A stretch of DNA of 64,000 nucleotides from Acidobacteriota bacterium (GTDB lineage: Bacteria; Acidobacteriota; Terriglobia; Acidiferrales; 2-02-FULL-67-57). Under the pieces are notes generated by a model that saw nothing but the letters and a program-made list of their open reading frames with translations, was not told the DNA's origin and made no database searches. The position numbers were made by a program, and so were the translations under genes. Below are positions 14,659 through 38,560 of the stretch, in pieces. The stretch is from positions 6,315-70,314 of the forward strand of contig JBBIPK010000005.1 of assembly GCA_037442885.1 (NCBI GenBank). Reading direction: 5' to 3'. The number at the start of each line of letters is the position of its first letter. The first letter of the stretch is position 1.

Positions 14659-15012
14659 CTACCGCTTCTTTTTCGGTGGACTCTCCTGCGGCGGGGTTGC
14701 ACTTCCTTCCTGAGGCAGGCTGTAGACTTTCTCGCCCGGGCGCGCCATCTTCAGTTCTTCCCGTGCCACGCGCTCAACCGCGCGCGGATCGTTCTTCAGC
14801 GCTTTGATCTCCTCCTCCAGGCGCTGGTTCTCTTCCTGCAAAGCTTGCAATTCCTGCTGCAGGCGTTCGTATTCTTGCTGGTGCCGCCGGACCGCCAGGT
14901 AGCCGTGCTCGCCGAAGAGAGTGTGGACGACCAGGGCCAGCAGCCCCAGGCCGAGAATCGTGAGGAAGAATCGTTGCCACGGCGAACTGTGCGGATTGCG
15001 CCGGGGTCTCAT
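14659..15012 (-). CDS. ftsB: septum formation initiator (FtsB/DivIC family)
   Basis: Internal ATG at 15012 of ORF 14659-15324, in ATGA overlap with the upstream gene's stop. One TM (FFLTILGLGLLALVV), then a coiled coil QQELQALQEENQRLEEEIKALKNDPRAVERVAREEL. Confidence 0.8.
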   Translation of the reverse strand: MRPRRNPHSSPWQRFFLTILGLGLLALVVHTLFGEHGYLAVRRHQQEYERLQQELQALQEENQRLEEEIKALKNDPRAVERVAREELKMARPGEKVYSLPQEGSATPPQESPPKKKR

Positions 15013-16424
15013 CCGAGGATGAACCGCTCCGTTGCCTTGACCAGGGTTTCGAGTTCGCGCTGCGAGTGGGCTTCGCAGTAGCAGCGCACCACGGGCTCTG
15101 TTCCCGACGGCCGCAGCAGCACCCACGAGCCATCTTCCAGGATCAGCTTGAGCCCATCCAGACGCTTGATCTCGACGACCTTCTTCCCATCGAATCGTTC
15201 CGGCTCCGTCCGGAGCTGTTTTTGGAAACGTTCCCGGGTGGCGGAGTCCAGGCGCAGGTTGAGCCGGACGGGATAGTAGGGACCGACCGTGGCGAAGAGT
15301 TTCTCGAGTTGTTCGCGCAGGCAAGCCCCGCGGCTGGCCATCATCTCGGCCACCAGCAGGCAGGCCAGGATTCCGTCTTTCTCCGGCACATGCCCGTGGA
15401 TGCTCAACCCCGCGCTTTCTTCCCCTCCAATGATGATCTTGTCCGCCTGGATGAGTTCGCTGATGTACTTGAACCCGACCGGAGTTTCGTGCACGACCAG
15501 ATTCCGGTGCCGCGCCACGGCGTCGATCAGGTGAGTCGTGGCCACGCTGCGCGCCACGCCGACGCGCCCTCCGCGCGTCTCCGCCAGGTAGTCGAGCAGG
15601 AGGCCCAGGATGTGGTTCGGCGAAACAAATGTCCCATCCCCGTCCAAAATCCCGAACCGGTCGGCGTCTCCGTCTGTGGCCAGCACCACCTGGGCGTTGT
15701 TCTCGCGCAGGGCACGCTTCGCTTCCGCCAGGTTCTCTTCGTCCGGCTCCGGGGCATGCCCGCCGAAAAGGACGTCCCGATAATCATGGAGCGTGGTGAC
15801 GCTGATTCCATGCTCGCGCAAGAGCCGATCCAGGTATCCGCGTCCTGTTCCGTAGAGGGGATCAAAAACCACCTTCAGGCCGGCGCGGCGGATTTCCTCC
15901 AGCCGCACTTTTTGACTGAGCATCTCCAGGTAGGGAGCGCGCGGATCGATACTGTGCGTCGTTCCGCGAGCCTTTGACTTAGGCAGCCCCTTCCGCGTGC
16001 GCCCCGGTTGCCGCGCAAGAGATTCAATCCGCCGTGTCACCTCCGGCAGGGCAGGGGCGCCATCCGCGGTCGAGAATTTCAGCCCGTTGTACTCGGCAGG
16101 ATTGTGGCTAGCCGTGAAATTGATGCCTCCGTCGGTTCCACGCCGGCGGATTTCATAGGAAATCGTGGGTGTCGGCGTTGCTTCTTCACACAGATAGCTC
16201 GTGATCCCGTACTCGGAGAGGACGGACACGGACCTGCAGGCGAACTCTTCGGAGAGGAAACGCGTGTCGTAACCGACCACCAGCGCAGGGGTCTTCCGGT
16301 CTTGCTGCCTCACATGGCGGGCGATAGCCGCTACCGCCAACTCGACGTTCGCGAAGGTAAAGTCTTCCCCGATGATCCCGCGCCAACCGGAAGTGCCGAA
16401 GTGAATCGGAGGCTTGTCGGCCAT
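15009..16424 (-). CDS. phosphoglucomutase/phosphomannomutase family protein
   Basis: Start at MADKPPIHFGTSGWRG. Active-site serine loop FTASHNPAEYNGLKF and metal loop ATDGDADRFG. Confidence 0.9.
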   Translation of the reverse strand: MADKPPIHFGTSGWRGIIGEDFTFANVELAVAAIARHVRQQDRKTPALVVGYDTRFLSEEFACRSVSVLSEYGITSYLCEEATPTPTISYEIRRRGTDGGINFTASHNPAEYNGLKFSTADGAPALPEVTRRIESLARQPGRTRKGLPKSKARGTTHSIDPRAPYLEMLSQKVRLEEIRRAGLKVVFDPLYGTGRGYLDRLLREHGISVTTLHDYRDVLFGGHAPEPDEENLAEAKRALRENNAQVVLATDGDADRFGILDGDGTFVSPNHILGLLLDYLAETRGGRVGVARSVATTHLIDAVARHRNLVVHETPVGFKYISELIQADKIIIGGEESAGLSIHGHVPEKDGILACLLVAEMMASRGACLREQLEKLFATVGPYYPVRLNLRLDSATRERFQKQLRTEPERFDGKKVVEIKRLDGLKLILEDGSWVLLRPSGTEPVVRCYCEAHSQRELETLVKATERFILG

Positions 16425-32184: not shown

Positions 32185-33543
32185 ATGGAATTCAAGACGA
32201 TTATTGAGCCGTTCAAGATCAAGATGGTCGAGCCGATTCGCTGGACCACGCAGGGCGAGCGCGAGCAACTCTTGCACGAAGCGGGCTACAACCTGTTCCT
32301 GGTCCCGGCCGAAGACATCTTGATTGACCTGCTCTCGGACTCCGGCACCGGTGCGATGAGCACGGAGCAGTGGGCTGCCATGATGCGGGGAGACGAGAGC
32401 TACGCCGGGAGCGTGAGCTTTGACCATCTGCGCCGCACCGTGCAGGAGATTTTCGGCTACCAGCACGTGATTCCCACTCACCAGGGGCGCGCTGCCGAAC
32501 GCATTCTCTTCACTGTGATGTGCAAGAAAGGCGACGTCGTGCCCAACAACACGCACTTTGACACCACGCGCGCCAATGTCGAGTTCGTCGGCGCTGAGGC
32601 GGTGGACCTTCCCATCCCCGAAGGGAGGGAGCCGGCGACTCTCCATCCCTTCAAGGGGAACATGGACGTGGCCGCGTTGGAGCAACTGATCGAGCGCGTG
32701 GGTGCTCAGCGCATTCCGCTGGTGATGATGACGATAACGAACAATTCCGGCGGCGGGCAGCCGGTTTCGCTGGAGAACATCCGCGCCGTGCGCGCTGTCT
32801 GCGACCGCCACCATCTGCCTCTCTACTTCGACGCCTGCCGCTTTGCCGAGAACTCCTACTTCATCAAGCAGCGCGAGCCAGGCTATGCCGCGAAGACACC
32901 GAAAGAGATTGCACAGGAAACGTTCCGCCTAGGCGATGGCTGCACGATGTCGGCGAAGAAAGACGGCCTGGCAAACATCGGCGGGTTTCTCTGTACGAAC
33001 GACGACCGGCTGGCTCAACAGGAGAAGAACCTTCTCATCCTGACGGAAGGCTACCCCACCTACGGCGGACTGGCGGGGCGCGACCTGGAAGCCATTGCCG
33101 TCGGATTGGAAGAGGTGTTGGATGAAGACTACCTCCGCTACCGCATTGTTTCGACGGCCTATCTGGGCAAGCACATCGCCGAGTACGGCGTCCCCATCGT
33201 GCAGCCGCCGGGCGGGCATGCCATCTATTTGGATGCGCGCGCCTTCTGCCCGCATATCCCACCGCGTGAATTTCCGGGCGTGACGCTGGCGGGTGAACTC
33301 TATCTGGCCGGAGGCATCCGCTCCTGCGAGATCGGGACGCTGATGTTCGGGGAGCATGCCACGATGGATCTGGTGCGGCTGGCGATTCCGCGCCGCGTCT
33401 ATACGCAAAGCCATGTGGACTATGTGATTGAAGTCATCCGGCGCGTTTGGGAGCAGCGCGAGCGCATTGTCGGGCTGCGGCTGGTCTACAGCGCGCCCTT
33501 TCTGCGGCATTTCACGGCCCGCTTTGAGCGGTTGGAGCGGTAA
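32185..33543 (+). CDS. beta-eliminating lyase: tryptophanase / tyrosine phenol-lyase family
   Basis: 452 aa, GGGGGAGG Shine-Dalgarno. EPFKIKMVEPI..., DLLSDSGTGAMS, PTHQGRAAE, the PLP-lysine context CTMSAKKDGLANIGGFL, and C-terminal FLRHFTARFE. Confidence 0.9.
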   Translation: MEFKTIIEPFKIKMVEPIRWTTQGEREQLLHEAGYNLFLVPAEDILIDLLSDSGTGAMSTEQWAAMMRGDESYAGSVSFDHLRRTVQEIFGYQHVIPTHQGRAAERILFTVMCKKGDVVPNNTHFDTTRANVEFVGAEAVDLPIPEGREPATLHPFKGNMDVAALEQLIERVGAQRIPLVMMTITNNSGGGQPVSLENIRAVRAVCDRHHLPLYFDACRFAENSYFIKQREPGYAAKTPKEIAQETFRLGDGCTMSAKKDGLANIGGFLCTNDDRLAQQEKNLLILTEGYPTYGGLAGRDLEAIAVGLEEVLDEDYLRYRIVSTAYLGKHIAEYGVPIVQPPGGHAIYLDARAFCPHIPPREFPGVTLAGELYLAGGIRSCEIGTLMFGEHATMDLVRLAIPRRVYTQSHVDYVIEVIRRVWEQRERIVGLRLVYSAPFLRHFTARFERLER

Positions 33544-35743
33544 GCACCGGGTTGGGCACGGTGGGCGAGAAAAAGTGGGCAAACGGCTCAAAGGCATCCC
33601 GCAGCAGTTCGAGGTATTTCTCCCGGTCATAGCCTTCGGTGCCATTCAACAAGGCAAACGCGCGGGCGCGTTCGTGGGGGAGCGTGGCCTTTGCGTTGGT
33701 GACCACGTAGGTGATGCATTCGCCTGGACGCAGACCAATGCCGCGGGCGGCCAGTTGCTGCGCGGCGACGGCCACCAGACTCGCTTTCTCGTAGCCTTCG
33801 GGTGATTGGGTCAGGCGTTTGTGGATGAGGAGATCTTCCCAGGCAATCTGTCCGCTCTGCAGTTTTTCCTCGTAGCGTTCGAGCACGGCGCGTGCTTCCA
33901 CAAGCTTCTGCCGGTAGGAGGGAGCATCGTAGGCTTCGCTCAGCAACTGCAAGACTTCTTCCTGCATGCGCGCGACGATGCGCGGCGTGTCGTGCCGGCG
34001 CAGCTCCAGCCCTCGCACTTTCAGCTCCCCCGCTTCGGACACAGCAAAAAACCGATTCGGTACGGGGATGTAGTCGAACTGTTTCGAAGGCAAGAACACG
34101 ATGTAGCGATAGACCGCTTCGAGGGCAATGGGCAGGCGCGTGGCGGCGGAAAGTGTGCGGGCAAGCTGTTCGTAGTCGGCGCGGGTTGCTTCTTCTTTCT
34201 GCACATACATGGAATCCACGATGGCGTGGAGGAGCCGGAAGCCCGCTCCTTCGGCGATTTCCTTGGCACGCAGCAAGGTTTCGCGGGCGATGGCATTGAT
34301 GGCTTCGTGCGCCTCGATGCGGCCGACGCGGGCGTTCTTGTAACCGAGATAGCCGAAGCAGCAGACAAGCAGCCACTTGGCGGCGTCGCGGCGCAGTTGG
34401 TAGCTGCGACGCAGCGCAGGTGCAAGCGCCGGGCCGAGCTGCTCTTTGTAGCGTCGGCGCTTTTCGATCAGCGGCGCCACCGTACGTCCCGCGACGCCGC
34501 GCCGCCGCTGGCAGATGCGGTAGCCGAGCTCGGGTAGGGGCGGGCTCTGCGGGCAGCAACCACAGTTGATCGTTTCCGAGGAAACATTGCACCGAGCCAT
34601 GATGGTGGGGAACATCGAAGGCCAGTCCAGCTCCGCCACGTTTTCGTGGAAGCCGAGGCGGGGCGGAAAAATCAAGCCGCCGCGGTCGGCGAGTTGCAGT
34701 TGGTCGGGGCGCTTGAAGGCCTCGGGCTCGCTCTTCTGCTCGGGGATGAGAACGCCGTCGCGATAGAGCACTTCCATCTGCATGTAGCTGATGCCCGTGC
34801 CGGTGGTGGTGCGGGCGGCGTACTGCACGGGCAGCTTCGTCAGCCGCGCGAGTTCCCACAGTCCTGCCAGCTCGCATTCTTCCGTGATGAATGAGTTCTG
34901 CGTGTCCACATGCAGGCGGCCGAAGAGCGTGGTGCTGCTGGCTTTGAAGAGAATGCGGCCGTAGGAAATGAGGCTGCGCGCCCGCGTGCGCTGCACGGCG
35001 TGGTCAGGGTCGCGGTTCAACGGCAGCGGAATCCGGTATCGCGCTGCCTGGCGCAATAGCCCGGGCAGCAGCGTTGAATCTCCGTAGTCCGAGACGATCA
35101 GGTCAGGATCGTAGCGTGCCAGCAACCGCTGGAAAGTCTTGGCTACCGGTTCGTCGGCGTCGCTGATCTCGCAGCTTTCGTCGCCCACCTCGACTTCGAG
35201 CGCTGCGCGCACGCCATGGCCGGGATTCAAAGCCTCTGCCCCGTGCAGCCGCAGGCGCATCACTTGCAAGGGAGGCAGCGCATAGTCGAGTGCCCATTCA
35301 TCATCCTGGCAGGCCAGGGCGCGGACGCGCCCGGAGGCGTCGGCTTCCAGCTCGCACCAGGCGAGGGGGAAAACCTGCTTCTCAAAGCAGTAGAGGGCAG
35401 CCGGCAGCAAGTCACTGTTGTAGAGACGCAGCGTTGGATCGAAACGCCGAACAAACGTGCGGATGGCGGTGGATCGCGTGGGGATGGCGATGGAAAGCGC
35501 CAGCACGCGGCAGGTTCGATTGTCCCAGAAGTTACGCCGCTCGGTGAGCCGGCAGGTCACCGGCCAACCCCGTGCCCCGAGCACCCATTGCAGGCGGAGC
35601 AGCCGTGCCTCCGGCCCCTGCACGTAGAACACCGGGGAGAATGCATCACTCAGCCGGTAGCGTTTCCGGTTCGGATCCATCACCCACAGCGTCATCCCCT
35701 GTGGGTTGGGGTAGAGGTCGAACAGCCAGCCGCGAATCTGCAT
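33512..35743 (-). CDS. divergent family-B (Pol II-like) DNA polymerase with substituted exonuclease motifs
   Basis: ATG at 35743 preceded by AAGGA. 743 aa. Motif A ELDWPSMFPTI, motif B KWLLVCCFGYLGY, motif C LLHAIVDSMYV, and KxY-region KVRGLELRRHDTP. ExoI/II/III positions read RLRLH, SDYGDSTLL and FITEE. The ORF-track extension to 35965 is rejected. Confidence 0.8.
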   Translation of the reverse strand: MQIRGWLFDLYPNPQGMTLWVMDPNRKRYRLSDAFSPVFYVQGPEARLLRLQWVLGARGWPVTCRLTERRNFWDNRTCRVLALSIAIPTRSTAIRTFVRRFDPTLRLYNSDLLPAALYCFEKQVFPLAWCELEADASGRVRALACQDDEWALDYALPPLQVMRLRLHGAEALNPGHGVRAALEVEVGDESCEISDADEPVAKTFQRLLARYDPDLIVSDYGDSTLLPGLLRQAARYRIPLPLNRDPDHAVQRTRARSLISYGRILFKASSTTLFGRLHVDTQNSFITEECELAGLWELARLTKLPVQYAARTTTGTGISYMQMEVLYRDGVLIPEQKSEPEAFKRPDQLQLADRGGLIFPPRLGFHENVAELDWPSMFPTIMARCNVSSETINCGCCPQSPPLPELGYRICQRRRGVAGRTVAPLIEKRRRYKEQLGPALAPALRRSYQLRRDAAKWLLVCCFGYLGYKNARVGRIEAHEAINAIARETLLRAKEIAEGAGFRLLHAIVDSMYVQKEEATRADYEQLARTLSAATRLPIALEAVYRYIVFLPSKQFDYIPVPNRFFAVSEAGELKVRGLELRRHDTPRIVARMQEEVLQLLSEAYDAPSYRQKLVEARAVLERYEEKLQSGQIAWEDLLIHKRLTQSPEGYEKASLVAVAAQQLAARGIGLRPGECITYVVTNAKATLPHERARAFALLNGTEGYDREKYLELLRDAFEPFAHFFSPTVPNPVLTAPTAQSGP

Positions 35744-35999
35744 CGAGCAGTCCTTTCGCACGTACAATTCGTTCCATTGCCTCCAGCCGCTTCTCCTGGT
35801 CAATCGCCACAGCCAGCAGGATGGCTTCGAGTGGGTTCGCGTGACACTGGTAGGTGGCAGCCTCGGTATAGAGCCGCACTCGTTGGAATACCTGGTCGAA
35901 ATAGGCCTGGTCTTCGCGATAGAGCGCACGCCGGAACTTCCCCCAGCGGCGCGCTTCTTCATCAATCTGCTGGCGAAACGTCGGAACCGTGCGACCCAT
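35646..35999 (-). CDS. hypothetical 117-aa protein, middle gene of the polymerase operon
   Basis: ATG at 35999 preceded by GAGGTG that overlaps the stop of the upstream gene. Helical-looking FRRALYREDQAYFDQVFQRVRLYTEAATYQCHANPLEAILLAVAIDQEKRLEAMERIV. The last ~33 codons overlap the polymerase start out of frame. Confidence 0.6.
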   Translation of the reverse strand: MGRTVPTFRQQIDEEARRWGKFRRALYREDQAYFDQVFQRVRLYTEAATYQCHANPLEAILLAVAIDQEKRLEAMERIVRAKGLLDADSRLAVRPLPQPTGDDAVGDGSEPETLPAE

Positions 36000-36007
36000 G
36001 GCTCACC

Positions 36008-36634
36008 TCAAGCCGCCGGCAGCCGCGACCGCTCGCAGACGAGCGCGATCCCTGCGTCGGCGTCCACCGCAAAACGCCAGACTTGTTCTGCCTGACGCTC
36101 GAGCTGGAAGAAAAAACCTGCCCGCGCGGCCGCGGGGCGGGGAAGTGTCCCGCCGGAAAACACTGCTGTGGCTATGGGCCATTGCCGCAGTCGCGTCAGG
36201 GCGGCGAGCGTCTTCCGGTAGGAAGCAGCGGCGTCAAAGTCGCTGATGTCCTCGTCGCAAAACAGGTCGGGCAGCCCGGTGATCACCGCCACTTGAGCCG
36301 GGAAGCGAGCCAGCACATCCGGCAGGCGGCGGATCAGCTCTTCCAATTGAAAACAGGTGAAGGCGCGTGCCACCCGGATGGATTCGTTCAGTTGTGCAGA
36401 GGGAATGCGCCGCGAGCACGCCAGCCGTGCCAGCAGCAGGGGGTTGAAGCAGTTCGCGCCGTCCACAAACAACACCAAGCGCCGGCTCAGGTACACACCT
36501 GGCAGGAGGTAGTGCGCCAGCCGCGGTGTTTCCTCACAGCCGTAGAAAACTGCCAGCCCGCGCCGCGGCAGTACCCAGGGGCGAGAGGAAGAGGAGAGAA
36601 ATGGAAGCGATGCAGCCATCCGGCGGTACCCCAC
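36008..36634 (-). CDS. RecA/RadA-fold protein with degenerate Walker A/B motifs (ImuA-analogous?)
   Basis: 208 aa from GTG 36634 (alternative ATG 36619). The layout GLAVFYGCEETPRLAHYLL / LVLFVDGANCFNPLLLARLA / IRVARAFTCFQLEELI / VAVITGLPDLFCDEDI mirrors the Rad51/RadA core blocks, but there is no GxxGxGKT and no Walker-B Asp. Confidence 0.6.
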   Translation of the reverse strand: MGYRRMAASLPFLSSSSRPWVLPRRGLAVFYGCEETPRLAHYLLPGVYLSRRLVLFVDGANCFNPLLLARLACSRRIPSAQLNESIRVARAFTCFQLEELIRRLPDVLARFPAQVAVITGLPDLFCDEDISDFDAAASYRKTLAALTRLRQWPIATAVFSGGTLPRPAAARAGFFFQLERQAEQVWRFAVDADAGIALVCERSRLPAA

Positions 36635-36651
36635 GAGCCAGCTCGCAGGGC

Positions 36652-36680
36652 ATTGTAAGCGAATAAAAAGCGAAAGTCAA
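36652..36680 (-). promoter_or_regulatory. near-consensus sigma-70 promoter (TTGACT-17 nt-TACAAT) with the direct repeat TTCGCT-N5-TTCGCT filling the spacer
   Basis: The minus strand reads TTGACT TTCGCTTTTTATTCGCT TACAAT. It lies in the only AT-rich patch of the divergent intergenic region, 17-33 nt upstream of the candidate starts of the RecA-like gene. Confidence 0.55.
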
Positions 36681-36814
36681 GAGAAATTTCAAAAAGCCTC
36701 TTCTGCGCGAAATAGCTCACTCGAAGCTGAGTCTCGCAACCTCTTCAACGCCTGGTTGCTTTCCTATCTCTTTTGTTTTCTTTGCAATAGCCAAGTGACT
36801 TTTTGGCAGTGCGG

Positions 36815-38560
36815 ATGCACATCTTGTTCTGGATTATGACTGGTTCGGACTCAAAGCTGTCGCGCACATGGCTGATCGGCCTGGCCATCTCTGGCCTGCT
36901 CATTGTCGCTTTCGCTCTCCTAGCCCTCGTCCTCTACACTCGTACCGAACGCGGCGTGCTCGAAAAGCACAGCCAGGATCAGCAGGTTCTGGCACAGGTT
37001 GCAGCCTCAGTTCTGGCCGAGCGGGTGGATTCGCTTCTGTTTGCGGCGCAATCTCTCAGCGAGCGGCTCCAGCGAGCAAGCGTGGCGAGCTGGGAGCAAG
37101 AGATTGCGACACTTCCCCCGTTGGTGCCCGGCGGCAAGGTGCTGCTGCTGCGCTCCGACAGCGGGTTTGTCTGGACGGGAAAACTCCCTGGCGAGGCGGG
37201 CTGGGAAAGCGCGCTCACGCTTTGGCAAGGAAAATCGCATGCGGTGCTGACCAATCCACGGGTGGACCCCTCGGGCCAAGCGCAGGTGGTGCTGCTGGTT
37301 CCTTTGTATCGGGGCGAAGCGCTGGCCGCCCAGGTTGGCTTCACCCTGCCGTTCGCGCACCTGACCGACTCTATCCTGCCCCCTTCAGCAGCGGTTCGCG
37401 TCAGCTTGTCGCTGCTGGATGAACAGGGGCTGGTGCTGGCCAACAGCCGCCATCCCGAGATGGTGGGCAGGCGACTCCCTGAGCCGCAAGGAAACTGTCT
37501 GCCCTGCCACGCCGACTTTTCTCTCGAACACCGCATGCTGCGGAATGAGAGCGGCGTGGGGAGCGTGCGGGTGGCGAACGAGCCCCTGGCGCTTGTTTCC
37601 TTTACGGCTGTGCATCTGCCCGGGCGACGCTGGAGTCTCGCGCTGACGGAACCCTATTCGAGCGTGATCGCCGACACGCGCCACGGATTTCAAGCCATCA
37701 CCCTGTTGCTCGGGCTGGTGCTGATGGTCGGGATCGGGGCCACCACCCTCACGCTTCAGTACCGGTTGCAGCGTCGGCGGGCTGAGGAACGCGCCCACCT
37801 GGCCGAGCGGCGCGCCGCGCTCGAGCAGCAACTCCGGCAGAGCCAGCAGCTGGCCACCATCGGCAAGATGACCTCGCAGATTGCCCACCAGATCAACACA
37901 CCGCTGGCCACGCTGGCACTGAATGTGGAGTATCTGCGCGCCGAGCTGGCGCGGACCTACGGTGGGGCGAGCGCGGGGCTGGGAGAAGTGAGCAACGCCA
38001 TCCTGGAGGAAATCGAGCGCCTGAAGCGCGTGGTGAACGATTATCTACGTTTTTCGCGTTTGCCGCAGGCGGTGCTTGCGCGTGAATCGCTGACTGAATT
38101 GCTTCGCAGTTTCCTGGATTTTATCGAGCCGGAGGCCCGGCAGCGCAACGTGCGCGTGGAGGCCGACCTGGGCACGGAGGCGATGGAGGCGGAGCTGGAT
38201 GCGGAGCTCTTTCGTCAGGCCTTTCTGAATCTCGTCCGCAACAGCTTTGAAGCCATGCCCGAGGGCGGCACGCTGCGGATTCGTATCGCCCGCCAGGATA
38301 CAGAAGTGGCGGTGCGGCTCGAAGACACCGGCCGCGGCATCTCCCCCGAAGCTTTGCCACATATCTTCGAGCCGTTCTTTACCACCAAGAAGGACGGCAC
38401 TGGCCTGGGACTGGCCCATACGCTGCGTGTCATCGAACAGCATGGTGGCACGATCCGCTGCGACAGCAGGCCCGGCCAGGGCACGGCGTTTGAGATTCGA
38501 CTCCCGGCGGCATCTGCCGCCGTAGAGCTTTCCCGCGAACTGGCGGGGAAAGGAAGATGA
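36815..38560 (+). CDS. membrane sensor histidine kinase with a CxxCH motif in the extracytoplasmic domain
   Basis: ORF from TTG 36803, with ATGs at 36815 and 36836 (start ambiguous). Two TMs flank a ~250-aa sensor domain containing NCLPCHA. H-box IAHQINTPLATL. G-boxes GTGLGLAH. Confidence 0.88.
   Translation: MHILFWIMTGSDSKLSRTWLIGLAISGLLIVAFALLALVLYTRTERGVLEKHSQDQQVLAQVAASVLAERVDSLLFAAQSLSERLQRASVASWEQEIATLPPLVPGGKVLLLRSDSGFVWTGKLPGEAGWESALTLWQGKSHAVLTNPRVDPSGQAQVVLLVPLYRGEALAAQVGFTLPFAHLTDSILPPSAAVRVSLSLLDEQGLVLANSRHPEMVGRRLPEPQGNCLPCHADFSLEHRMLRNESGVGSVRVANEPLALVSFTAVHLPGRRWSLALTEPYSSVIADTRHGFQAITLLLGLVLMVGIGATTLTLQYRLQRRRAEERAHLAERRAALEQQLRQSQQLATIGKMTSQIAHQINTPLATLALNVEYLRAELARTYGGASAGLGEVSNAILEEIERLKRVVNDYLRFSRLPQAVLARESLTELLRSFLDFIEPEARQRNVRVEADLGTEAMEAELDAELFRQAFLNLVRNSFEAMPEGGTLRIRIARQDTEVAVRLEDTGRGISPEALPHIFEPFFTTKKDGTGLGLAHTLRVIEQHGGTIRCDSRPGQGTAFEIRLPAASAAVELSRELAGKGR

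Follow-up and report, generated by a model that had tools for sequence, protein, structure and literature searches.

The minus strand of a 64,000-nucleotide stretch of an Acidobacteriota genome (contig JBBIPK010000005.1, positions 6,315 to 70,314; hereafter the window) carries three co-directional genes in the order iRadA-PPB2-PolB2. They encode a predicted RadA-like protein, a small partner protein and a family-B DNA polymerase, and they are preceded by a promoter whose spacer is occupied by a direct repeat. An earlier note, made from the letters of this DNA alone, had described the genes as a mutasome-like cassette for translesion synthesis, mutagenesis or repair and had known of no precedent for the pairing of a RecA-like protein with an exonuclease-deficient family-B polymerase.

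Such cassettes have in fact been in print since 2014, the bacterial branch included. PolB2 (Dpo2), arCOG07300 and an inactivated RadA were reported as linked in archaea and in “several bacterial genomes”, sometimes together with lexA (Makarova 2014, PMC4104785). The bacterial polymerases of group G2 were then found to be nested within the archaeal B2 group, with an ExoI motif that is not conserved, a missing ExoIII motif and a single motif C aspartate (Kazlauskas 2020, PMC7544198). The names iRadA, PPB2 and PolB2 come from a recent catalog (Timinskas 2025, PMC11791011), in which bacteria show only the order iRadA-PPB2-PolB2 and all bacterial PolB2 members lack DxD. The same work describes an N-terminal “MGRT” arm of PPB2 with conserved Arg3 and Arg9, and a D(K/R) motif of PolB2 that is preceded by a loop resembling the Rad51 oligomerization element and that was modeled against the PPB2 arm; the complex was modeled as a PolB2:iRadA:(PPB2)3 heteropentamer. 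Dpo2 of Sulfolobus is an active, exonuclease-free enzyme that extends mismatched and lesion-opposed primer ends (Feng 2022, PMC8764526).

Organization and conservation of the operon

The features of the operon are located in Table 1, together with related elements from other genomes. The three genes are tightly coupled, much as the earlier note had seen: the TGA stop of gene 1 (36010-36008) lies inside a GAGGTG sequence, the ATG of gene 2 follows 4 nucleotides further on, and gene 2 runs into the start of gene 3 by an overlap that measures 98 nucleotides. NCBI holds gene 1 as the 203-residue form that begins at ATG 36619 (P0241). The reading frame of gene 3 opens at 35965, but the actual start is the ATG at 35743 (N-terminus MQIRGWLFDLYP), because the form that begins there is identical to a 743-residue database protein (P0121) and because its GWLFD(L/V)YP N-terminus aligns with MRGWLFDVYP of an archaeal PolB2.

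Table 1. Location of the operon features in the window and of related elements in other sequences (aa, amino acids; nt, nucleotides).
Feature	Sequence	Position	Strand	Remarks
Sigma-70-type promoter	window	36652..36680	minus	-35 TTGACT 36680-36675, 17-nt spacer, -10 TACAAT 36657-36652
Candidate LexA (SOS) box in promoter spacer	window	36658..36674	minus	direct repeat TTCGC-N6-TTCGC, reads TTCGCTTTTTATTCGCT
Gene 1, iRadA, 203 aa	window	36008..36619	minus	ATG 36619; alternative GTG 36634 would give 208 aa
Gene 2, PPB2 (“partner of PolB2”, arCOG07300 family), 117 aa	window	35646..35999	minus	
PPB2/polB2 out-of-frame overlap, 98 nt	window	35646..35743	minus	last 32 PPB2 codons and stop over first 33 polB2 codons; tail ...RPLPQPTGDDAVGDGSEPETLPAE
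Gene 3, PolB2, 743-aa B-family DNA polymerase	window	33512..35743	minus	decayed exonuclease domain
PolB2 motif C, I508-V509-D510	window	34214..34222	minus	by alignment to Thermococcus PolB; translation confirmed
PolB2 D353-R354 (then GG), D(K/R) motif of the family	window	34682..34687	minus	invariant in 16 homologues; translation confirmed
Leader element	L005	6900-6987	minus	
Leader element	L011	6692-6803	plus	
Leader element	L018	6813-6924	plus	
Leader element	L027	6093-6217	plus	
Leader element	L085	1860-1982	plus	
Leader element	L119	659-741	plus	14 more copies in other loci
iRadA-PPB2-PolB2 cassette of Leptospira phage LkmZ_Bejolso9	KF114878.1 (L201)	2207-2773, 2736-2999, 2953/2980-5259		PolB2 33% identical, motif C ITD

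For comparison with other genomes, one genome per GTDB species was scanned; 253 species representatives matched, and the locus counts given here come from the best 80 of these, mostly metagenome-assembled genomes of Terriglobia. The gene-neighborhood comparison that the earlier note had proposed as a check came out in favor of a conserved unit, with iRadA, PPB2 and PolB2 on one strand and in this order in every related locus with enough upstream DNA (about 75 of the 80). With 253 matching species representatives, the cassette appears widespread in soil Acidobacteriota.

Gene 1 and the RadA/Rad51 core

The AlphaFold 2 model of the 203-residue iRadA has a predicted local distance difference test score (pLDDT) of 85 and a predicted template modeling (TM) score of 0.84, and the best 50 matches of this model in a Foldseek search of the PDB are all ATPase cores of RadA, Rad51 or DMC1 (E about 1e-10, TM-score about 0.68). 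A profile built from 25 iRadA homologues matches RadA of P. furiosus (1.6e-5); the Pfam Rad51 model gives 0.07 on gene 1. Walker A is absent from the window protein and from all 25 aligned sequences, and the Walker B aspartate of RadA aligns to a threonine. Judged from alignment and predicted structure, gene 1 is a catalytically inactive RadA/Rad51 core without the N-terminal domain. Fold search, profile and alignment thus uphold the Rad51/RadA/RecA-type core lacking Walker A and the Walker B aspartate that had been read from the sequence, and they replace the accompanying comparison with the RecA-like ImuA by one with RadA and Rad51.

Gene 2 and the PPB2 family

Gene 2, which had matched nothing recognizable at first reading, is the known PPB2, as its MGRT motif shows. 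The protein begins MGRTVPTFR, with M1, G2, R3, T4 and R9 invariant in 16 homologues, and an hhalign comparison of the PPB2 family profile with PPB2 of Sulfolobus solfataricus reaches an E value of 1.3e-4 through the MGRT motif and a YTQ.A.Y..P block. Homologues of gene 2 number in the hundreds. The local Pfam-A and NCBIfam copies named no family for genes 1 and 2. For gene 2 this is because the local Pfam copy is without PF26485, a precomputed family assignment carried by 120 of 120 among the PPB2 homologues listed. The AlphaFold 2 model of PPB2 consists of three helices (residues 8-25, 28-48 and 56-81) followed by a disordered acidic tail.

Gene 3 and the PolB2 group of polymerases

PolB2 matches the Pfam family DNA_pol_B (4.7e-24), and its best NCBIfam models are NF004416 and NF004418, “type B DNA-directed DNA polymerase” of the archaeal type PRK05761, at 361 and 328 bits. 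Models for Pol II score far lower on the window protein: NF004421, whose cut-off is 570, reaches 31 bits, NF004422 and NF004420 give at most 12 bits, and no cut-off among these models is below 570. The PDB matches listed for PolB2 are archaeal PolBs and eukaryotic Pol alpha and delta, none of them named as a bacterial Pol II. The polymerase half matches the Thermococcus and Pyrococcus PolB structures at E about 1e-46, and the N-terminal, exonuclease half reaches only about 11 bits against Thermococcus PolB. In the alignment with the latter protein, D141 and E143 of ExoI are replaced by R139 and R141, N210 and D215 of ExoII by Y220 and L225, and ExoIII has no alignable counterpart, in keeping with the substitution of all three exonuclease motifs that had been noted from the letters.

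Of the polymerase motifs, the aspartate of motif A (D373) and the lysine of motif B (K456) are retained in the window protein and are invariant across the family, as is the second aspartate of motif C (D510). Motif C itself reads IVD and not DxD, Thermococcus D540 being replaced by I508 and D542 kept as D510; relatives in the 2025 catalog read IVD, LVD, IID or LTD at this place. The KxY position is N563-R564-F565. The stretch D353 R354 G355 G356 is invariant in 16 PolB2 homologues, and its archaeal PolB2 counterparts are DKGG and DRGG. A cataloged Terriglobia operon (MBZ5699579-81, type 1a, motif LVD) has a PolB2 that shares 60% of 399 aligned residues with the window protein, and an archaeal PolB2 of the Thermoplasmatota from the same catalog aligns across the N-terminal half, with its decayed exonuclease domain, at 34% identity (E 2e-67). 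By these alignments the window PolB2 is a member of the bacterial PolB2 (G2) group that derives from archaeal PolB2, and it is not Pol II-like. The earlier description of gene 3 as a Pol II-like PolB by motifs A, B and KxY therefore stands in part: the protein is of the B family and keeps motifs A and B, but KxY is NRF, the likeness to Pol II fails, and the IVD of motif C had been missed.

The isoleucine in place of the first motif C aspartate and the NRF at the KxY position could be taken as marks of a catalytically dead polymerase, whose complex would have a structural or regulatory role, for instance at stalled forks or in origin-independent initiation. This was the early view (PMC4104785), held before Dpo2 was shown to be active. 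We consider it quite unlikely for the window protein, because the Dpo2 enzymes of S. islandicus and S. solfataricus, which have the same kind of change in motif C, are robust polymerases needed for damage-induced mutagenesis (PMC11791011, PMC8764526), and because Asp373, Lys456 and Asp510 are invariant in the family.

The promoter and a candidate SOS box

The sequence TTGACT-17-TACAAT is the sole match to the promoter consensus in positions 33000-37200, one match having been found where 0.7 are expected by chance, so that taken alone it does not exceed chance. A block of the form TTGAC(T/A)-TTCGCTTTTTNTTCGCC-TAnnnT stands upstream of iRadA in about 70 of the 80 related loci, in intergenic DNA that is otherwise unalignable. 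In full the block reads TTGAC(T/A)-TTCGCTTTTT(A/G/C)TTCGCC-TA(T/C)nnT, and it is shared by loci whose PolB2 proteins have only 53-65% identity. We take the promoter to be real because it precedes this operon almost unchanged in about 70 further genomes, and the near-consensus sigma-70 promoter that the earlier note had drawn is confirmed to that extent.

The spacer between the -35 and -10 elements is filled by the direct repeat TTCGC-N6-TTCGC, which has a period of 11 base pairs and of which the copy at 36674-36658 is the only one in the 64-kb window. Metagenome contigs were scanned for TTCGCTTTTTNTTCGCC, which gave at least 120 loci; the first open reading frames on each side were clustered, and representatives were scanned with Pfam. 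The families that flank the motif are RecA-fold ImuA-like proteins (at least 28 loci), radical SAM proteins (at least 12), Y-family (IMS) polymerases (at least 9, such as the DinB-like gene in L119), DinB-family proteins (at least 8), iRadA (at least 6), DEAD/Helicase_C helicases (at least 4), DUF1572/DinB_2 proteins (at least 3), UDG (at least 3) and LexA (at least 3, in L144, L116 and L183; LexA_DNA_bind 1.9e-20, Peptidase_S24 1.1e-30). The ImuA-like proteins beside this operator match Pfam RecA at 1e-15. In at least three of the metagenome loci the motif lies 7-38 nucleotides before the start codon of lexA.

Because the flanking genes are those expected of an SOS regulon in which lexA regulates itself, TTCGC-N6-TTCGC is most likely the SOS (LexA) box of this lineage. 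A GTTC-N7-GTTC direct repeat is reportedly bound by LexA of Alphaproteobacteria and of Acidobacterium capsulatum; TTCGC-N6-TTCGC resembles it, and some copies read GTTCGCTTTTTGTTC. The resemblance is not exact and no lexA adjoins the operon, which would fit a site for some other regulator, such as a dedicated damage-response repressor, that would place the operon under damage control outside the canonical SOS response. Such a regulator seems unlikely in view of the position of the motif just upstream of lexA, as expected for autoregulation, and before classical SOS genes.

Two candidates were set aside in this part of the analysis. An operon-adjacent lexA was dropped as the SOS link after phmmer found none in the window or the 80 loci, and additional exact matches to TTCGC-N6-TTCGC in the genome loci, found about 8.7 kb downstream and within polB2, were not counted as members of the regulon because they fall in coding sequence and have no promoter context.

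The overlap of PPB2 with polB2

PPB2 ends 89-134 nucleotides inside polB2 in most of the related loci. The tail that is encoded there follows the consensus R.LP.P.GDDAVAD..EPE.P.AD, and its alignment persists even where long linkers have been inserted. Within the overlap the third codon position of polB2 is the first codon position of the PPB2 frame; the diversity of polB2 third positions is 0.30 over the 19 usable overlap columns as compared to 0.48 over 475 columns elsewhere (Mann-Whitney p = 3e-6). On synonymous resampling the PPB2 frame remains open in about 50% of trials, and in 40% for the window. The tail is missing in four loci, two in which the genes are separated (L015, L023) and two in which the overlap is short (L062 and L070, with 25 and 11 nucleotides). 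From the diversity and resampling results, together with the four tail-less loci, the PPB2 tail looks constrained but dispensable. It may be a functional peptide or a translational-coupling device: the acidic tail could be a docking peptide, or, alternatively, the long overlap could tune the translation of PPB2 and PolB2 toward a 3:1 stoichiometry. The main text of PMC11791011 never uses the word “overlap” and makes no mention of the acidic PPB2 tail of about 35 residues.

At the two loci with separated genes (L015 7225-8000, L023 6586-7997), the end of PPB2 and the start of polB2 are about 0.3-0.9 kb apart, and PPB2 ends in a different tail. In the cataloged Terriglobia operon, PolB2 (MBZ56995xx) is annotated from the methionine equivalent to M17 (MKLWLIEPNQ) and so lacks GWLFDLYP, an N-terminal stretch that archaeal PolB2 has in conserved form, probably because start selection disfavored so long an overlap with the PPB2 gene.

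A structured RNA-like element in relatives

A GC-rich element of 85-125 nucleotides begins 10-14 nucleotides downstream of the LexA-box promoter at 11 of the 80 genome loci and at 9 metagenome loci; the window has no copy. Its settings are of three kinds. The element forms the 5' leader of iRadA-PPB2-PolB2 in L011, L014, L018, L027, L048 and L085, it is the leader of a DinB-like polymerase gene in loci such as L119, and it stands alone as a divergent unit in L004, L005, L010, L013, L016 and L028. In an alignment of 20 copies that was fitted to the structural model, 97.2% of cells pair, compensatory changes occur in 13 of 18 pairs, and the covariation score is 0.58, as against 0.21 in shuffles (none of 500 reaches 0.58) and at most 0.125 for slid partners. 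No family in Rfam 15 matches the element at gathering thresholds or at E<=1. That the element is a small open reading frame was ruled out, since the insertions seen in its central hairpin include stop codons and have lengths not divisible by three. An unrelated Acido-Lenti-1 RNA (RF01687) is present in L018 at 14983-15037 on the plus strand, about 5 kb downstream of the PolB2 operon (38.6 bits, gathering threshold 37).

Three points are new in this study: a link with the SOS regulon by way of the operator, a conserved, dual-coded tail of PPB2, and an unnamed leader RNA in relatives. It is possible, if doubtful, that they mark the Terriglobia branch as a regulatory form of the PolB2 mutasome in its own right, with a selected dual-coded PPB2 tail, membership in the SOS regulon, and regulon promoters that in relatives drive a structured RNA in the leaders of dinB and PolB2.

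Relation to known mutagenesis systems

The gene order, the MGRT motif with R3 and R9, the IVD of motif C, the DRGG motif and the cataloged relative with 60% identity indicate that an operon of this class has already been described. We put at roughly 0.85 the probability that the operon is a member of the bacterial PolB2 mutasome family, iRadA-PPB2-PolB2 under an SOS-box promoter, on the chromosome of an uncultured, Terriglobia-like acidobacterium. With that family it shares the order and coupling of the genes, the PPB2 arm with its two arginines, an iRadA without N-terminal domain or ATPase motifs, the dead exonuclease domain, the xVD form of motif C, D(K/R)GG and the SOS link, and nothing essential differs. 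The window clade is set apart by the absence of an adjacent lexA, the SOS link being the promoter operator instead, by the absence of a clamp motif and by the PPB2 tail of about 35 residues. The proposal in the earlier note of a non-proofreading, mutasome-like cassette for translesion synthesis or mutagenesis agrees with the published interpretation (PMC11791011, PMC4104785, PMC8764526), and the evidence for an SOS box reinforces it.

The comparison with ImuA-ImuB-DnaE2, from which that proposal started, holds at the level of logic, each being an SOS cassette in which a RecA-fold protein that does not act as a recombinase is combined with an adaptor and with an error-prone, non-proofreading polymerase. 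The two are not homologous as systems, however. ImuA-ImuB-DnaE2 combines a C-family DnaE2 with a dead Y-family adaptor, ImuB, and a RecA/SulA-like ImuA, whereas the polymerase of the window is of the B family, gene 2 encodes a three-helix protein of 117 residues, and gene 1 is RadA/Rad51-like. The three-part logic shared with ImuABC and Pol V, and the failure of the local Pfam and NCBIfam copies to name either of the first two genes, are what an undescribed mutagenesis cassette would show that had arisen independently, in the manner of ImuA-ImuB-DnaE2, around a B-family polymerase. That explanation is hardly credible for an operon with all the hallmarks of a described family (PMC4104785, PMC7544198, PMC11791011) and a relative at 60% identity in the catalog, the more so as gene 1 matches RadA and Rad51 and true ImuA-like proteins match Pfam RecA.

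Dpo2 of S. islandicus and S. solfataricus, encoded with arCOG07300 and a RadA paralogue, is the only experimentally characterized relative, an exonuclease-less extender polymerase for translesion synthesis that is encoded in a damage-inducible operon. The proteins are homologous to those of the window and share MGRT, YTQ.A.Y and a motif C without the first aspartate; the Sulfolobales differ in the order PPB2-PolB2-iRadA, in archaeal regulation (Orc1-2) in place of LexA, in clamp motifs that, where present, are of the PCNA type, and in very divergent sequences. Parallels with Pol V of Escherichia coli (UmuD'2C-RecA), drawn in PMC11791011, are a recombinase-family subunit bound through an oligomerization-like motif, a small subunit whose N-terminal arm lies near the active site, and genes under LexA control. 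Pol V differs in its Y-family catalytic subunit, in a UmuD' dimer where PPB2 forms a modeled trimer, and in its use of the active cellular RecA and not a dedicated dead paralogue. Pol II of E. coli (polB) is likewise a B-family, SOS-induced extender, but it is a single subunit with an intact 3'-5' exonuclease, a canonical DxD and a QLGLF clamp motif; in the window PolB2 neither the exonuclease residues nor the first aspartate of motif C is kept, and the NCBIfam scores for Pol II lie far below the cut-off.

A model for the operon

In the model that these comparisons suggest, LexA would bind TTCGC-N6-TTCGC (TTCGCTTTTTATTCGC; TTGACTTTCGCTTTTTATTCGCTTACAAT) between the -35 and -10 elements and shut a strong promoter. 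DNA damage would remove LexA and release the three genes on one mRNA, whose translation would be coupled through the iRadA stop within the Shine-Dalgarno sequence of PPB2 and through the termination of PPB2 98 nucleotides inside polB2. By analogy with published work on the family, PolB2 would be active in spite of the missing first aspartate of motif C, would not proofread, and would mainly extend mismatched or lesion-opposed primer ends. The products may assemble as a heteropentamer, as modeled for the family, with a PPB2 trimer joined by single copies of PolB2 and iRadA; in it PolB2 would grip iRadA through the Rad51-oligomerization-like loop and one MGRT arm of PPB2 would reach into the cleft near the DNA. 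Such a complex would extend primer ends past lesions at the cost of mutation.

Several observations weigh against the operon being an SOS-controlled PolB2 mutasome. To our knowledge, no bacterial PolB2 complex has been purified, deleted or otherwise studied by experiment, and the activity, extender role and stoichiometry supposed for it are carried over from Sulfolobus enzymology and from the AlphaFold models of others. We infer the binding of LexA to the repeat from the composition of the regulon, and the metagenome loci that bear the motif carry no taxonomic assignment. A phmmer search with E. coli LexA as the query detected no lexA gene either in the window or, at the 80 related loci, in the 8 kb around the operon. 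Neither a QLxLF-like nor a QxxLxxFF-like clamp motif is found in the last 60 residues of iRadA or PolB2, which leaves recruitment to the replisome unexplained; the clamp-motif columns of the catalog are also empty for the Terriglobia relative, and the motif is present in only a fraction of members and is not obligatory. The hhalign comparison of the iRadA family with S. solfataricus iRadA is not significant (E 0.11), a result consistent with the rapid divergence noted in the literature. With the model of the PPB2 monomer (pLDDT 69) as the query, Foldseek returned nothing from the PDB at E<=0.001 and no sigma-factor-like match.

As a discovery the operon matters little, since publications already cover the cassette, its distribution among bacteria and its probable role, and a close relative of the same class is cataloged. 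The bacterial PolB2 complex is nevertheless a reasonable target for experiment. The assignment of the SOS box suggests that a B-family extender is placed under one damage switch alongside Y-family and DnaE2-type polymerases, and small, testable additions come from the dual-coded tail of PPB2 and from the leader RNA, as yet unnamed, of relatives.

Genomic context and mobility

The neighbors of the operon in the window are genes for a NadD-like transferase, an EEP-family protein, a DUF1122 protein, a beta-eliminating lyase, a histidine kinase and a sigma-54 response regulator. The G+C content is flat along the window (0.60-0.66), in which no tRNA genes, notable repeats or Rfam matches were found, and PADLOC reported no defense-system component, its sole match being a homing-endonuclease model on the polymerase domain that was judged irrelevant.

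These data bear on the view that the operon is the replication module of a prophage, a plasmid or another mobile element. The flanking genes of the operon vary between related genomes, and the cassette can travel: records of Leptospira LE1-like phages carry a complete iRadA-PPB2-PolB2 cassette beside an integrase gene, and PolB2 is also found on many haloarchaeal plasmids. For the window a mobile module is very improbable, given housekeeping and signaling neighbors, flat composition, the lack of tRNA genes, notable repeats and defense components, and a promoter with the host SOS box common to lexA and dinB; the original impression of unrelated flanks without any sign of a mobile element is borne out.

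The annotation in the record of Leptospira phage LkmZ_Bejolso9 does not identify the open reading frame for PPB2 (MGRTVTPYS..., 87 amino acids) as PPB2. No terminator-like site was found in the window between polB2 and the convergent gene for the beta-eliminating lyase (tryptophanase-like, 32185-33543, plus strand), which the 3' end of polB2 overlaps by 32 nucleotides (33512-33543).

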